Positions 1,346 through 14,845 of a DNA stretch of 29,015 nucleotides are shown here, piece by piece. The DNA comes from Bdellovibrionales bacterium (GTDB lineage: Bacteria; Bdellovibrionota; Bdellovibrionia; Bdellovibrionales; UBA1609), in assembly GCA_020434645.1 (NCBI GenBank), contig JAGRAK010000001.1, positions 1 to 29,015 of the forward strand, written 5' to 3'. The translations under genes and the position numbers were made by a program. How positions within the stretch are numbered: the stretch's first letter is position 1; each line of letters starts with the position of its first letter. A model generated the notes under the pieces. It was not told where the DNA came from and ran no database searches. It saw nothing but the letters and a program-made list of their open reading frames with translations.

Positions 1346-1815
1346 ATATTTTCGTCGTCTTCGGACAACTCATCTTTGTGCTTTATAAGGGCTGGCCGAA
1401 TAAGCTCCACCAGGGCGGGCTCAATTCTCATGATTTTCGCATTTGAGTCTGCGTCGTCTCTGGCACACCCTTCATAGTCTATCCCATTATAATCACATTC
1501 ATAAACTATTCGAAGCTTAACGCTTCCGCCCTCTTGCCTAAGCTGAATAATCTGTCTTGCGAAGATTCTTTTGCCACCACTAGTAAATGTGTACTTGCGC
1601 GGATAAGTGAGAAGTATTCCGGTCGCATTATCTACCGTTTTGATCTTATATTTCTTAGACTCCAGAGCTATCTTAACATCTTCTAATACATTCGAAACGC
1701 CTTTATCCGTTGTGAGTAGATACTCTGACGCCGCTCTTGGCTTTGGCGCTGTTGCACAGTTTGAAAGCAAAACTGTTAACGCCATTACTGCAAAACTTTT
1801 TATCAAAAATTTCAT
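1342..1815 (-). CDS. Hypothetical lipoprotein, possibly BamC-like/helix-grip fold
   Basis: Start moved to ATG 1815 (MKFLIK), which overlaps the S28 stop as ATGA. Lipobox LLSNC. Pattern VKIALESKKYKIKTVDNATGILLT resembles BamC-type domains (fold is inference). Stop overlaps the convergent rmuC stop. Confidence 0.7.
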   Translation of the reverse strand: MKFLIKSFAVMALTVLLSNCATAPKPRAASEYLLTTDKGVSNVLEDVKIALESKKYKIKTVDNATGILLTYPRKYTFTSGGKRIFARQIIQLRQEGGSVKLRIVYECDYNGIDYEGCARDDADSNAKIMRIEPALVELIRPALIKHKDELSEDDENI

Positions 1816-3218
1816 AATGATAGCCACTCCAGAGATAAATTATAGAACTCATCTTTTGCACGTACAATTGCTGGAGTAGATTTAGAGCCCAAATCATCAC
1901 AGTGTGCTGCCCCTGGTATAACTAAACTTTGCAGGGCAGGGTTTGTGAGGTTCCCATTTAGTTCTGTGATTGATAGGTTCATCCAAGGGTCTTCACTGCC
2001 ATTTGTAAAATAGATTTTGCTCGTCTGAGTATCAAGTAACGGCAAATAAAAATTATTATTTGTCTGCTCAACCGGAGCTGGTGTTTTAATTCCAAAAAGG
2101 CGCTCACATAGTCGCTCATGATAGCTGGCATTAATTCGAGCCGACCTTGATCGCAAAGAGCTATCAGACGAAGCGTTCTGCCAATAGCCGTACTCTGTGC
2201 AGCTTTGATAGAACCATTGGCGCATTCCCACTCCTGTGCTGTTCTTCGCAAGGCTTATGTCTTCAGCCGCTTGCGCACTCATATCTACAAGATTACCAAA
2301 GTAATTTGAAATAAGCTGCACGCCAGTAACGTAACCGGCGCGACCTGATTGCTCTAAATAGCTACAGAATTTAGTTCGTAGACCATACTGAACTGCCGCT
2401 GCAGCAGAATCGGCGAGCAAATATAAAAAATCATCACGATCTCTTAAGACGCTCGCATTAAATTCGGCTTTAACTGCTACAAAACCCTCGTCAGTCACAA
2501 TTTCAGATTCGATTTGCGACACAGTAGACATAATCGCAGACAAACACTTTTGGCCAGCCATACGAGCTATATGTTCATCGTACTCACTAAAATCTAAATC
2601 AGCCATAACTGGAGCCGACGACGCCAGCGCTCCAGCAAACTGATGAGGATACAACGCTCGCGCATAGGCTGATAGTGACCCCGGGTAGCTGCCGCCTATG
2701 GTGATCCACTTTCCGCTCAGACCCAATTCTTTTTGCATCTGACTTTGAAAGGCCACTAAATCTTTTAGTGCAAATTCGGTAGTTAAATATTTTAAATTAT
2801 GAGTTTGCAAATCGGCAAATGGCTGACTGTGACCATAGTAACGATGCTCTAGTGCAAAAACATGAGCCCCAAGCTTTTGAGCATGAATGGCCGTTTGCCC
2901 TCCGACCGCGTATTCACCGCATGCCCCTTCTCCACAAACAAACAGAAGCACTGGCGCATCGACTCCGCGTGCGTAAGAACTGTTGCGCCAATATCTCTGC
3001 TTAAAAGTTCTGAGGTCACTTTTTGAATTATGATCTAATTTCTGTTCAATATTGCCAGCAACCGTGACCTCTTCGAATATACGAAATGGTGACCGTATTT
3101 GCGGGCGTTCAGCCTGCTCAAGCGAACGGCGTAACATGATATATTCTTTGGGATCTGCCTTGGCAGTAGCAAAAAATAACATTGAAAGAGCGACAACTAA
3201 AAATACTAATTTTTTCAT
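1812..3218 (-). CDS. Secreted serine peptidase, family S28 (prolylcarboxypeptidase/DPP7-like)
   Basis: Start ATG 3218 (MKKLVF) after a GGGGGG RBS; signal peptide. Motifs EQKLDH, FKQRYW, EHRYYGHS, GGSYPG (Ser), ASSAPV, WFYQSCTEYG, TNGSEDPW (Asp), AHCDDL (His). Confidence 0.9.
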   Translation of the reverse strand: MKKLVFLVVALSMLFFATAKADPKEYIMLRRSLEQAERPQIRSPFRIFEEVTVAGNIEQKLDHNSKSDLRTFKQRYWRNSSYARGVDAPVLLFVCGEGACGEYAVGGQTAIHAQKLGAHVFALEHRYYGHSQPFADLQTHNLKYLTTEFALKDLVAFQSQMQKELGLSGKWITIGGSYPGSLSAYARALYPHQFAGALASSAPVMADLDFSEYDEHIARMAGQKCLSAIMSTVSQIESEIVTDEGFVAVKAEFNASVLRDRDDFLYLLADSAAAAVQYGLRTKFCSYLEQSGRAGYVTGVQLISNYFGNLVDMSAQAAEDISLAKNSTGVGMRQWFYQSCTEYGYWQNASSDSSLRSRSARINASYHERLCERLFGIKTPAPVEQTNNNFYLPLLDTQTSKIYFTNGSEDPWMNLSITELNGNLTNPALQSLVIPGAAHCDDLGSKSTPAIVRAKDEFYNLSLEWLSL

Positions 3219-11961: not shown

Positions 11962-12540
11962 ATGGTGAATGCGCTCATACTAGTGTTAATTTATAGTCTT
12001 TCGGCCTATGCACAATTTAACATTAAAGGGCTAGAGAATTTGGACAATCCTTTTAAAAAGGGCAATCCAATGTGCAATATTGATCTTGCTTATAAAGAAG
12101 GTCGCAATGAGGCCGCTGATTCGCATCGTTACACACCTGCCCCCAGTCGAATGTTAGCCGTTGGGCATGGCTGTAAACCAGAAGTTGTAGAAAAAATGAA
12201 GGCCGCCTTCGTCAAGGGAGCAAAAGATGCCGAGACGATGGGTAAAGTAGATGAATCTGTACAAATAACATTAGATGACGACACCAAGAAAAGCGTTGAA
12301 AAGTATTTGCCCACAGCAGGGGCTAAAACTGTTCTTACACCCAAGAAGAAACCGGCACATGGATGCCTAAAAGGCAGCAACGGAATTCTTTGCGGATGGA
12401 ACTGTGCAAAAGCATCTGACAGCCAAACCGTATTTTGCTCTAAAATACGCGATCATTTTTGTTTTGCTGATAAGATGAGTGGTGCTTGCGGAAAAAACTG
12501 CACCTCATCTAAGCTCGATGGGATTCGCTGTAGCAATTGA
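11962..12540 (+). CDS. Secreted cysteine-repeat hypothetical protein
   Basis: AAGGAG RBS overlapping the previous stop, ATG 11962, signal peptide. 10 Cys, 8 of them in the last 58 aa. Confidence 0.72.
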   Translation: MVNALILVLIYSLSAYAQFNIKGLENLDNPFKKGNPMCNIDLAYKEGRNEAADSHRYTPAPSRMLAVGHGCKPEVVEKMKAAFVKGAKDAETMGKVDESVQITLDDDTKKSVEKYLPTAGAKTVLTPKKKPAHGCLKGSNGILCGWNCAKASDSQTVFCSKIRDHFCFADKMSGACGKNCTSSKLDGIRCSN

Positions 12541-12577
12541 TAAGACTAGCGTTAGTTGGTTGCGTAGAAATCCGGTA

Positions 12578-12597
12578 ATTCTGTTCACCGGAGGAAA
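12578..12597. repeat. Direct repeat, copy 1 of 2 flanking the barrel gene
   Basis: ATTCTGTTCACCGGAGGAAA, 19/20 identical to 13378-13397. Confidence 0.85.
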
Positions 12598-12723
12598 CGT
12601 GGATGCGCGTGAAAACCGTGTATGCAATTTTAATTAATTCCGACTAGATGTTCAAAACCATTGATCTACAAACTTAGCCCTGCTAAAGGCTTCAGCTAAT
12701 CATTCGATAGCTCAGGAGGCTTT

Positions 12724-13371
12724 ATGCAAGTTCTTATTGCACTTTTAACGATTATTTCGTTTCGTTTGGCATTTGCCCAAACAAATCTTCAACCCGAAAA
12801 AGAACAGACATTACTCGCAGAAGCTAGAACTCCAAAAACTCAAAATCGTTCTGATGGATTACGACAACGCGACTTCCATATAGATGCGGGCAATGTAATT
12901 AACCTTATTCTTGGAGAGAACCTCAAATCAGACTCCGGAACAAATCGAGATAGAAATCGTCAAACTATTAATTTGGACGCTGGATGGAACTGGGGTAGTT
13001 TTGAAGCCGGGCCATTAATTTATTATGACAAATATGATGCAGATTCATATAAAGAAGAATCTCTTTCTCTAGGTGGACAAGTTGCTTACAACTTTATCCC
13101 AAACCAACCAGGGAATGATTTGGTTCCATATACCTATTTAAAACTTTATCACTTCGACTACGATTATGATCACAGTACCAATTTTTCATCTAGTTATACT
13201 GAAAAAGGTTTGGTTTATGAGATCGGCGGCGGTGTTAAATATTTTCCGTTTGGCGAATACTTAGCTCTAGTCGCCAGTGCTTATTACAAAGTTAACGATG
13301 CCGAACAAGATAGCGTAGACTACACCGTTAACGGGTTGAGAGCGCGCGGATCATTTTTAATTTATTTTTGA
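12724..13371 (+). CDS. Outer-membrane beta-barrel protein
   Basis: AGGAGG RBS, signal peptide, strands INLDAGWNWG, LGGQVAYNF, YEIGGGVKYF, C-terminal SFLIYF. Confidence 0.78.
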   Translation: MQVLIALLTIISFRLAFAQTNLQPEKEQTLLAEARTPKTQNRSDGLRQRDFHIDAGNVINLILGENLKSDSGTNRDRNRQTINLDAGWNWGSFEAGPLIYYDKYDADSYKEESLSLGGQVAYNFIPNQPGNDLVPYTYLKLYHFDYDYDHSTNFSSSYTEKGLVYEIGGGVKYFPFGEYLALVASAYYKVNDAEQDSVDYTVNGLRARGSFLIYF

Positions 13372-13377
13372 TAAAAG

Positions 13378-13397
13378 ATTCTGTTCATCGGAGGAAA
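13378..13397. repeat. Direct repeat, copy 2 of 2 flanking the barrel gene
   Basis: ATTCTGTTCATCGGAGGAAA, 800 bp from copy 1. Similarity continues as TGGTTGC versus CGTGGATGC. Confidence 0.85.
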
Positions 13398-13435
13398 TGG
13401 TTGCATCCAAATGTGCGACCTGACACATAGGTACC

Positions 13436-13455
13436 AAAATTGGCTCAGGCGGAGG
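13436..13455 (-). repeat. Duplicate of the tRNA-Asn 3' end (att-like repeat)
   Basis: AAAATTGGCTCAGGCGGAGG is identical (20/20) to 13647-13666, which covers the last 15 nt of the tRNA including CCA plus 5 nt of 3' flank. Confidence 0.92.
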
Positions 13456-13651
13456 TTGTGCAAGCGCAGTCAAATTGCCAGGGGCAATTTGATGTGATGC
13501 GCCCGCGAGCTTGCGAGAGGAGACTTGCGACGAACGCAAGCGCAGCGAATAGGACGAGAGGGCTAAACGCCCGATTCGTCCGCGTCCCGACAACGAGAGC
13601 CACGCAAAAAACGAAAATCATGCGCAAAAATAAAATGTGAAAAAAGAAAAT

Positions 13652-13727
13652 TGGCTCAGGCGGAGGGACTCGAACCCCCGGCCAACCGGTTAACAGCCGG
13701 TTGCTCTACCAACTGAGCTACGCCTGA
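13652..13727 (-). tRNA. tRNA-Asn (GTT)
   Basis: TCAGGCG acceptor stem, D-arm GCTC/GAGC, anticodon arm ACCGG-CTGTTAA-CCGGT, T-loop TTCGAGT, encoded CCA; 76 nt. Confidence 0.97.
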
Positions 13728-13747
13728 ACAGTGGTGTGTAAGGAACG

Positions 13748-13776
13748 AAGCTAAAAAAAGCAGCAGACAAAGTCAA
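13748..13776 (-). promoter_or_regulatory. Putative sigma70 promoter of tRNA-Asn
   Basis: TTGACT (13776-13771), 17 bp spacer, TAGCTT (13753-13748), about 20 nt upstream of the mature tRNA. Confidence 0.6.
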
Positions 13777-13795
13777 TCACGAATCATCTCAAGGG

Positions 13796-14308
13796 TTATT
13801 TGCGACGCCCCTCAGGCAATTCAGAAAGTTCTTCAAGAGCGGCATCAAAGGCAGGCGCGGTAAAGACTTGGCCCTTCCAACTATAGTTGCCAGCGGCATT
13901 TCGGCGGATAATCCCTACATGGCCATCAACGAATTTTACCAAAAGTGCCGGCATAAAAGTGGTATCTTCGGCCGCTGCGAGCTTTTCAGCAGACACCGCA
14001 CAAGACTTGGCAAGCCACTTCTCAACGGCAACAAAATCAACAACTTGGGGCTCTTTACCATCCCGAACCCAATTACTGCCCTGTTGTGATATTTTAAATT
14101 CATCAGGGCGAATAATGGCGGCAACCTTCGTGTCACACCAGTTCCATCGAAATTGATTAGAGCCGGCCGCCTCATCCTCAGACTCTATCCCAAACAAGGC
14201 CTGCACCCCTGGGCTAATACCCTTGGTATTAAGTGAGTAGATGAAATAGAGGCTTAGGCCTAATCCCAATATTAAAAAATTTAATTTTACGAGCATTGAT
14301 GTTTTCAT
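13796..14308 (-). CDS. Hypothetical protein with N-terminal membrane anchor
   Basis: 170 aa ORF with a hydrophobic N-terminus, 3 bp downstream of the upstream gene. No family recognised. Confidence 0.68.
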   Translation of the reverse strand: MKTSMLVKLNFLILGLGLSLYFIYSLNTKGISPGVQALFGIESEDEAAGSNQFRWNWCDTKVAAIIRPDEFKISQQGSNWVRDGKEPQVVDFVAVEKWLAKSCAVSAEKLAAAEDTTFMPALLVKFVDGHVGIIRRNAAGNYSWKGQVFTAPAFDAALEELSELPEGRRK

Positions 14309-14311
14309 AGT

Positions 14312-14845
14312 CTATTCCGGTAAAAATTCTATTACACAATTTTTGGCCTGTGGAGACATGATCACCACAGGACTACATTCAGCATAAACGCGAGAAATTT
14401 TTTCTTCACCACTAATCCCAACAATACCGATCGTTTCGTTAGAATAAAATGGATTCATCTCTAAATTTTTATACATTTGTGTGGCTGCGGCCGAGTCATT
14501 TATTGTGGCTCTAATGACTCCATTGGCCTTTTTTTCTACACGAGCTTCTAAGCTTGAGTTCTCAGGCCGAAATTCAAAGTAACAATAGGCTGTATAAAAT
14601 TCGCCATCTACCGTAATGGTTTGGCAGGCAATTGTAACAGCCTGATTTTGTGACTGATACCAGCGTTTTGAGTAAAAAACAGACCCATACTCAGGATCTA
14701 CAACTTTTTTCGGGCCTGAGAAGCCATTTAAAATTTCATCAAAAAGAACTGAGTCGCCCTTATTTAGTTTCAACGTGTAAGTTTCTTGCGCAACTGCAGG
14801 GCTCGACAAAAGGGCTGCAAATAAACAAATAAGTGTAAACTTCAT
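14312..14845 (-). CDS. Hypothetical secreted protein
   Basis: Signal peptide ending AVA-Q; four Cys; no family recognised. Confidence 0.68.
   Translation of the reverse strand: MKFTLICLFAALLSSPAVAQETYTLKLNKGDSVLFDEILNGFSGPKKVVDPEYGSVFYSKRWYQSQNQAVTIACQTITVDGEFYTAYCYFEFRPENSSLEARVEKKANGVIRATINDSAAATQMYKNLEMNPFYSNETIGIVGISGEEKISRVYAECSPVVIMSPQAKNCVIEFLPE

Follow-up and report, generated by a model that had tools for sequence, protein, structure and literature searches.

A gene-less structured unit behind a tRNA-Asn gene, probably a copy of a family inserting at tRNA 3' ends in Bdellovibrionota

The 3' ends of tRNA genes are classic landing sites of genomic islands and prophages, and small integrase-less repeats found there are usually dismissed as scars. 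The window, a stretch of 29,015 nucleotides from a metagenome-assembled genome of Bdellovibrionales (412 contigs, 78% complete), contains such a repeat behind a tRNA-Asn gene. This raises the question of whether the short sequence enclosed by the repeat is the residue of a lost island, the gene of a structured RNA or an element in its own right.

The minus strand of the window encodes, at 13652-13727, an intact tRNA-Asn(GTT) with an encoded CCA (ARAGORN; 72.2 bits with the Rfam tRNA model). A repeat scan recovered the exact 20-nt direct repeat, CCA included, that a first-pass annotation of the sequence had placed at 13436-13455 and 13647-13666. On the tRNA strand it reads CCTC-CGCCTGA-G-CCA plus ATTTT, that is, the last 15 nt of the tRNA (four T-stem nucleotides, the acceptor 3' strand, the discriminator and the CCA) and 5 nt of flank. 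By our own arithmetic, the chance expectation of an exact 20-nt repeat within about 2 kb is about 2e-6. As the minus strand encodes the tRNA, it is the copy at 13436-13455 that lies downstream (distal), and what had been described as an A-rich tract next to the tRNA, correctly for the plus strand, is better termed a U-rich linker of the tRNA strand. The 191 bp between the repeats have a G+C content of 0.59-0.64 versus 0.33-0.45 in the flanks, in agreement with the GC-rich spacer reported earlier, and both spacer strands fold better than shuffled sequences (z = -3.2 and -3.6). The hairpins read from the sequence by the same annotation are also present: the 10-bp hairpin (inverted-repeat scan) and the nested GGACGA/TCGTCC and GGGC/GCCC stems appear as H1 and H3 in Table 1, CTTGCG/CGCAAG (13524-13540) is an alternative inner pairing to H2, and the direct-repeat scan returned the repeated GCAAGCGCAG at 13460 and 13536.

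Pfam searches of the neighbouring ORFs revealed no integrase within the window, as had been claimed, and the only tyrosine recombinases in the assembled genome are two of Xer size. Among the 20 tRNA genes assembled in this genome, tRNA-Asn alone has a downstream duplicate of its 3' end; three tRNA genes (contigs C223, C313 and C103) have their 3' side less than 75 nt from a contig end. No second copy of the spacer was detected by BLAST in the 78%-complete genome. A cmscan of positions 12500-14500 against Rfam 15 at E<=5 gave no match to the spacer; besides the tRNA, three matches were returned (E 3.4-4.7), far under the gathering scores and all outside the spacer.

Table 1. Features of the unit downstream of tRNA-Asn (window positions)
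Feature	Position	Strand	Basis
Proximal repeat copy: last 15 nt of the tRNA + ATTTT	13647-13666	-	repeat scan, sequence
U-rich linker (A-rich on the plus strand)	13601-13646	-	sequence; terminator scan
Conserved structured core, ~145 nt, family-defining	13456-13600	-	matches to covariance models R1/R2, covariation
S1 hairpin, UCUCG-UUGU-CGGGA	13585-13598	-	covariation helix 1 (model-fitted alignment)
H3 hairpin, GGACGA/UCGUCC around GGGC-GUUUA-GCCC	13552-13581	-	covariation, both alignments
HB, UCGC (13545-13548) with GCGG (13503-13506), enclosing H2	13503-13548	-	covariation
H2, GCUUGCG with CGCAAGC, inside HB	13535-13541 with 13509-13515	-	covariation
HA, 13498-13506 with 13460-13468, two G·U pairs	13460-13506	-	covariation
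H1 hairpin, enclosed by HA	13470-13479 with 13483-13492	-	inverted-repeat scan, covariation
Distal repeat copy: displaced tRNA 3' end with CCA + ATTTT	13436-13455	-	repeat scan
Weak 5-bp palindrome ATGTG-N8-CACAT, past the distal copy	13411-13428	-	sequence only

Three parts make up a unit of this kind: a U-rich linker, often with a terminator; a conserved core that spans about 130-150 nt and folds into four or five helices; and the 3' part of the preceding tRNA, repeated in direct orientation. The copy in the window retains an intact structure. Intrinsic-terminator hairpins are frequent in the linkers of relatives; the scan called none in the window linker, and neither an intrinsic terminator nor a sigma-70-like promoter was predicted in the window copy. 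The S1 hairpin falls within a conserved 5' motif, UUGUCGGGACGCGG, and the family form of the H3 apex is GGGC-RUYGA-GCCC. The register of HA varies between subtypes, and HA overlaps HB at 13503-13506; also, a 9-bp alternative for the last outer helix competes in the window with the closing helix, the family consensus favouring the latter. The distal repeat copy directly abuts the conserved end of the core, GCACAA. Units of a sister family that follow tRNA-Met, Arg, Val and Leu are joined to their tails at this point too, 15 nt from the end of the tRNA. The palindrome past the distal copy, not called by the terminator scan, is possibly the original terminator of the tRNA, to judge from its sequence.

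The closest informative relative, a genome of the same genus (G003), has a homologous spacer behind tRNA-Asn. The two are 79% identical across 290 nt; blocks of 14-22 nt are unchanged, as are the first 13 nt of the linker after the CCA. A BLAST search with the spacer at the level of the taxonomic family returned this genome only, and pattern scans of genomes, metagenomes and viral contigs returned it plus chance matches in high-GC DNA. Between the two copies, H1, H2 and H3 differ by double-sided changes or coordinated base-pair indels: one hairpin changes in a coordinated manner from TCAAATTGCC/GGCAATTTGA to CAAAATGC/GCATTTTG, GGACGA/TCGTCC of H3 becomes GGCCA/TGGCC, and GCTTGCG/CGCAAGC of H2 becomes GCTCGACG/CGTCGAGC. 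Frame-breaking indels indicate that no ORF is conserved, and a coding potential of the unit was rejected on this basis. The protein of 170 aa encoded next to the unit is 37% identical to its G003 counterpart, and 43-51% identical in two spacer-less congeners; compared with 79% for the spacer, this means that the spacer is far better conserved than its surroundings and patchily distributed. The window unit is common to one congener only, G003, most congeners being without the unit.

The distal repeat of the G003 copy is cut at the start of contig C19 by an apparent insertion-sequence end, which we take to be of the ISL3 type. This locus (L035, positions 1-128) opens with the 3'-terminal 27 codons of an ISL3-like transposase gene, and the sequence resembling an insertion-sequence end abuts the distal tRNA-Asn copy and removes its CCA; it probably caused the break in the assembly. 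In another genome (G005; L008, ~1590-2320, minus strand), a cassette of 715 bp occurs behind tRNA-Asn between 16-nt tRNA-end repeats. It is devoid of the structured core and has ORFs of 108 and 98 aa resembling the Gp49/HTH toxin-antitoxin pair of the complete genome G045 (see below). Its sublocation is nearly that of the window unit, one nucleotide further into tRNA-Asn, suggesting that a recombination activity works there on different contents. The tRNA-Asn end is an insertion hot spot in the genus of the window.

In order to search for more distant copies, covariance models were used. The first (R1), built on the tRNA-sense strand from the window and G003 sequences, gave weak full-length matches in the taxonomic family, all of them immediately downstream of tRNA genes (Val-TAC, Met, Arg-CCT and Gln) and on the strand of the tRNA. 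The second (R2), built from six members, located 16 places in 8 of 109 genomes of the family and 37 places in 20 of 151 genomes of the order, which presumably includes cultivable Bdellovibrio-type genomes, and model searches also found copies in two further families of the phylum. Altogether, the models recovered about 45 further copies in 25 of the approximately 370 Bdellovibrionota genomes searched; in 1.4 Mb of unrelated viral contigs, searched as a specificity control, there was no match at E<=0.01. For roughly two thirds of the copies located, a tRNA gene of the same strand ends 30-130 nt upstream, and the tRNAs represent twelve anticodons (Asn, Val-TAC, Val-GAC, Met, Gln, Arg-CCT, Arg-TCG, Leu-TAA, Leu-TAG, Pro-GGG, Phe and Ser-CGA). 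Copies that follow a tRNA end in the 3' part of that same tRNA (exactly over 25 nt for Gln; over 25 nt with one mismatch for Met), the length of the repeat ranging from 15 to 31 nt across units. The first-pass annotation had proposed to look for copies behind other tRNAs with 3' duplicates of their own: these exist in the relatives, though not in the window's own genome. In form, the window copy is closest to the units of a genus of the sister family, both have the 5' motif containing S1, and in both the core finishes with GCACAAC before the terminal 15 nt of the tRNA begin.

BLAST against phages and plasmids yielded no match, and the 157 loci recovered from viral contigs with three patterns of the conserved 3' module are close to the chance expectation, none of them matching the covariance model. 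The literature searched offered nothing relevant on such units or on Bdellovibrio small RNAs near tRNAs. The family is uncatalogued; integrative elements of tRNA ends, as a kind, are already known. One genome of another order (G361; 1.8 Mb, 67% complete) holds six copies of the core, and none of the four loci inspected (L301, L303, L304 and L305) is adjacent to a tRNA. The loci have only about 110-200 nt in common, so that in this genome the element resembles a small dispersed repeat whose target is perhaps a different one.

The fold of the core was assessed in two alignments. In the alignment of 38 distinct cores fitted to the covariance model, 86% of the cells are paired (60.5% in shuffles) and 326 cells are double-sided (108 in shuffles), a number not reached in any of 500 shuffles and compared with 47-72 in slid controls. 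An independent MAFFT/RNAalifold alignment of 16 cores of the window subtype has 91.4% of the cells paired (69.4% in shuffles) and 77 double-sided cells (23 in shuffles; 0 of 500 reach the observed value; slid controls 17-21). In H3 (helix 1 of A8), 9 of 11 pairs have double-sided changes. The consensus begins on the 5' side with a short hairpin and then a long one, the latter having GGGC-RUYGA-GCCC as its apex. In the middle, a closing helix surrounds a second hairpin region, and on the 3' side a helix around a hairpin of A-tract, GC-apex and U-tract precedes CAAC and the tail. The check by covariance modelling that had been suggested earlier thus returned strong covariation in the family alignments. 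Counted on the tRNA strand, G·U pairs outnumber A·C pairs, 98 to 44 overall and 48 to 7 in S1, H3 and H2, in an alignment that, being fitted to a sense-strand model, may itself lean that way; this points to the tRNA-sense strand as the folded one. A tRNA-like fold of core plus tail was also considered and rejected, as inspection by eye found no segment complementary to the acceptor 3' strand.

The family thus defined follows at least twelve tRNA kinds in one orientation, with tails specific to each tRNA and a covarying fold. These properties bear directly on the notion that the locus is a decayed scar, a functionless residue of att arms from a genomic island since lost. Its tRNA-end repeats do resemble attL and attR, no gene is found inside and the tRNA-Asn end is favoured by insertions in this genus, but a unit of about 200 bp that recurs as the majority form at 12 tRNA kinds is not what random deletions would leave, the stems covary, and conservation of the unit far exceeds that of its flanks. 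Being the majority form, the ~200-bp unit is better regarded as a self-standing entity than as a product of random deletion. Recurrence and covariation largely exclude the functionless scar, to which, also in view of the position of islands described below, we assign a very low likelihood. The earlier annotation would have accepted a scar for a spacer that was single-copy, unconserved and without covariation; the spacer is single-copy only in its own incomplete genome, and it is conserved and covaries. The two readings offered there instead, a minimal element and a structured RNA, which are not mutually exclusive, find support in the copies of relatives and in the covariation.

The geometry of the junctions gives further indications. 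Core and tail meet at three sublocations of the tRNA, constant within each subfamily (position ~62, as in the window, the T-loop or the variable loop), and the repeat ends at the CCA or a few nucleotides past it. Williams reportedly found in 2002 that integrase subfamilies prefer particular tRNA sublocations, and by analogy the fixed junctions would correspond to such a preference and hence to the geometry of site-specific integration. A SINE-like retroposon was also considered: inserted by target-primed reverse transcription, it would read on the plus strand as duplication, body, A-rich tail and duplication, and the window does have a 45-nt A-rich tract directly before the second 20-nt repeat. 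Repeats of 15-31 nt vary as such duplications do, and matching tails at many tRNAs would come free if the repeat arose at insertion. Nevertheless, the G·U and A·C counts favour the opposite, tRNA-sense strand, many units have a terminator hairpin in place of the A-rich tract, the junctions keep to fixed tRNA sublocations in each subfamily and copies decay by internal deletion rather than by 5' truncation. Also, no reverse transcriptase is consistently nearby, the one encountered belonging to a group II intron 6 kb from a core. A retroposon is therefore quite unlikely in our estimation.

Site-specific integration directs attention to the recombinases near the cores. In the complete genome G045, one core lies 9.5 kb from tRNA-Leu, beyond a serine-recombinase island, and two others lie behind a tyrosine integrase and a toxin-antitoxin pair; in G150, the integrases with cores in their vicinity are a P4-type enzyme and one of the type found in G045. 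At the first of these loci (L099, 526-2159), a large serine recombinase ORF of 527 aa and tRNA-Leu(TAA), which lie on opposite strands, overlap at their 3' ends, and the 9.5-kb island has a Lnb_N/DUF7840 gene near its far end. At the second (L100, 9811-12562, all on one strand), an Xis-like HTH gene, the tyrosine integrase, a tRNA-like fragment, a core unit and a fragment are followed by the Gp49/HTH toxin-antitoxin pair, a second core unit and a fragment. A degenerate tRNA fragment separates each inspected island from linker and core, for which reason the possibility that the core is the end of integrase islands was rejected; the islands appear instead to have inserted between the tRNA and a pre-existing unit, a separation that also speaks against a scar. 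By analogy, this order of islands and unit would represent the tandem accretion typical of att sites, a pattern that has been described at tRNA genes (PMC5704250).

A dedicated integrase encoded in cis was rejected as well. Two integrases upstream of cores are 40% identical to each other, and when cores were counted within 1.5 kb only 2 of 8 loci of this integrase family had one; moreover, a search of the window's assembled genome recovered no member of the family that accompanies two of the cores. The ORFs within 1.5 kb on either side of the cores, at the loci inspected, encode integrases, toxin-antitoxin pairs, HNH and LysR proteins and unknowns. No autonomous parent carrying the core was found, including in phages, plasmids and viral contigs.

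The history of individual units could be followed in the sister genus. Its tRNA-Met and tRNA-Arg units are syntenic in several species, and five species have orthologues of the tRNA-Arg unit that are 87-89% identical, while in four others it has been shortened by internal deletions. In the relics behind tRNA-Arg-TCG (L134, L138, L139 and L140), the beginning of the linker, the final 10-14 nt of the core and the tail survive, suggesting that the unit is dispensable to the host. No clean empty site, that is, no direct junction of tRNA and flank around the tRNA-Arg unit, was found in 41 genomes of the sister genus, so that we infer mobility from the distribution of the units.

Vertical descent of this kind, during which the fold was kept with compensatory changes at tRNA-Met and tRNA-Arg, would also suit a structured small-RNA gene similar to RtT, transcribed with or just after the tRNA, ending in the second tRNA tail and CCA and therefore trimmed by tRNA 3'-maturation enzymes. 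The repeat would then be a part of RNA function and not a footprint of recombination, which is compatible with delivery by a mobile cassette. The preference of G·U pairs for the tRNA-sense strand, the direct contact of core and tail without a spacer, and a short pairing between the two in five tRNA classes (see below) are in line with such a gene. On the other hand, an intrinsic terminator stands between tRNA and core in many units, no promoter was predicted, Rfam gave no match and the short pairing is absent from the window copy. Also, several lineages have lost the unit or retain it with internal deletions, and most congeners do not have it, so that the host does not need it. Taken together, we consider a small-RNA gene unlikely.

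Our best reading is that the unit is a miniature, non-autonomous insertion element of tRNA 3' ends with a selected fold, rather than a random scar, and that 13436-13666 is probably a complete copy of a gene-less structured family that inserts at these ends in Bdellovibrionota. Entry would take place by site-specific recombination at a fixed sublocation of the tRNA, here 15 nt from its end. As with tRNA-integrating islands, the unit would bring a replacement tRNA end together with the linker, and the native end would be pushed downstream. The unit has no coding content, which means that its recombinase would have to be supplied in trans. Selection would maintain the core during the active life of the element, in a folded form adopted by the tRNA-sense strand, either as RNA or as single-stranded DNA. 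A plain integrase model is nevertheless strained on three counts. Closely related cores occur at different tRNAs with matching tails (Met and Gln in G066), and a classical integrase explains such retargeting poorly because the element must already carry the end of the new tRNA; the implied circle of about 200 bp is small for double-stranded recombination; and selection appears to act on a strand-specific fold.

Some units hold copies of the target in inverted orientation. The tRNA-Val unit of G002 (L092, ~1511-1533) contains near its 5' edge a 23-nt antisense copy of the tRNA 3' end, a potential pairing partner of the direct copy found at the 3' edge. A shorter complementarity, of 5-6 nt, links the 5' edge of the core to the first nucleotides of the tail in five tRNA classes (104 of 5000 permutations; one subtype). 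The window copy has only a 6-nt complement, UGGCUC to GAGCCA at the CCA end. When all units were compared for an antisense 'address', pairing within a unit was not above pairing across units. The edge pairing and the inverted copy hint that the target copy may form part of the fold. On this basis a broader proposal can be made, tentatively and with the odds clearly against it, of a cross-phylum class of protein-less, 'self-addressed' elements whose fold includes the copy of the target and whose insertion does not depend on a classical integrase. The tail would be the target copy, sometimes paired with an inverted one, and insertion would proceed by recombination of a hairpin substrate or by an RNA-guided or RNA-templated step. 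If true, this would explain the easy retargeting to a dozen tRNAs, and it is a real possibility that the class works by a mechanism so far undescribed.

Among described entities, the nearest architecture is that of the E. coli tyrT/RtT repeat and the nearest category is the CIME. The 178-bp repeats of E. coli tyrT, source of the RtT RNA, are non-coding units after a tRNA that end in a copy of its 3' part, and the Rfam library includes RtT. The likeness to RtT drawn earlier holds for the architecture, as the window unit also follows a tRNA gene and ends in a copy of the tRNA 3' end, and fails for the sequence family, the 2 kb around the unit having no Rfam match other than tRNA at E<=5. Unlike the tandem array of tyrT, a single unit is present in the window, and the family is spread over many tRNAs and genomes.

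CIMEs are decayed ICEs or IMEs of kilobase size, without an integrase and flanked by att sites at tRNA genes (PMC5704250). The units resemble them in being flanked by direct repeats of the tRNA 3' end (exact over 20 nt, 15 of them from tRNA-Asn), in having no integration or transfer genes and in occurring in tandem with integrase-bearing islands at the same tRNA. They differ from CIMEs in their size of about 200 bp, in the homologous core of ~140 nt with covarying stems at a dozen tRNAs and in showing no sign of decay from an ICE or IME, since no larger parent carrying the core was found. With tRNA-integrating islands and prophages, the units have in common the junction at the T-stem 3' strand (~62), T-loop or variable loop, the rebuilding of the tRNA and the displacement of its original end, but they are 100 times smaller and lack both integrase and cargo. 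They are also distinct from MITEs, characterized by terminal inverted repeats and a duplication of 2-10 bp, in that the window unit has no terminal inverted repeat and its 20-nt repeat is tRNA-specific.

Folded single strands serve as recombination sites in the integron attC and the CTX-phage attP, and guides are borne by RNAs such as the IS605 omega RNA and the IS110 bridge RNA. As in these systems, structure is more conserved than sequence in the present family, the fold is strand-specific and some members have an inverted copy of the target (23 nt in the tRNA-Val unit of G002, 5-6 nt in five classes). Unlike them, no IntI, Xer-dif, TnpB, IscB or IS110 gene lies beside the inspected copies, and the window itself is without a TnpB, IscB or IS110 gene. 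The repeats of the units are also much longer than integron core sites, with a complement of only 6 nt in the window copy.

The recurrence of the unit with local tails suggests a distinct minimal unit, mobile or regulatory, whose content is structure alone, and a covariance model for it accounts at once for many features annotated as 'duplicated tRNA end'. The questions that it raises concern what moves the unit, how it comes by each new tail and whether it affects the transcription of the tRNA, its termination and the later integration of islands.

Two further features were observed in the vicinity of tRNA ends. In the window, a 19/20 direct repeat, ATTCTGTTCAYCGGAGGAAA, at 12578-12597 and 13378-13397 brackets an ORF of 215 aa (12724-13371), and its second copy is 38 nt from the distal tRNA repeat. 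On contig C16 of G003 (L080), the displaced copy of the tRNA-Arg(CCT) 3' part, immediately behind the core, carries a GC-rich hairpin of 26 nt inserted in its T-loop.
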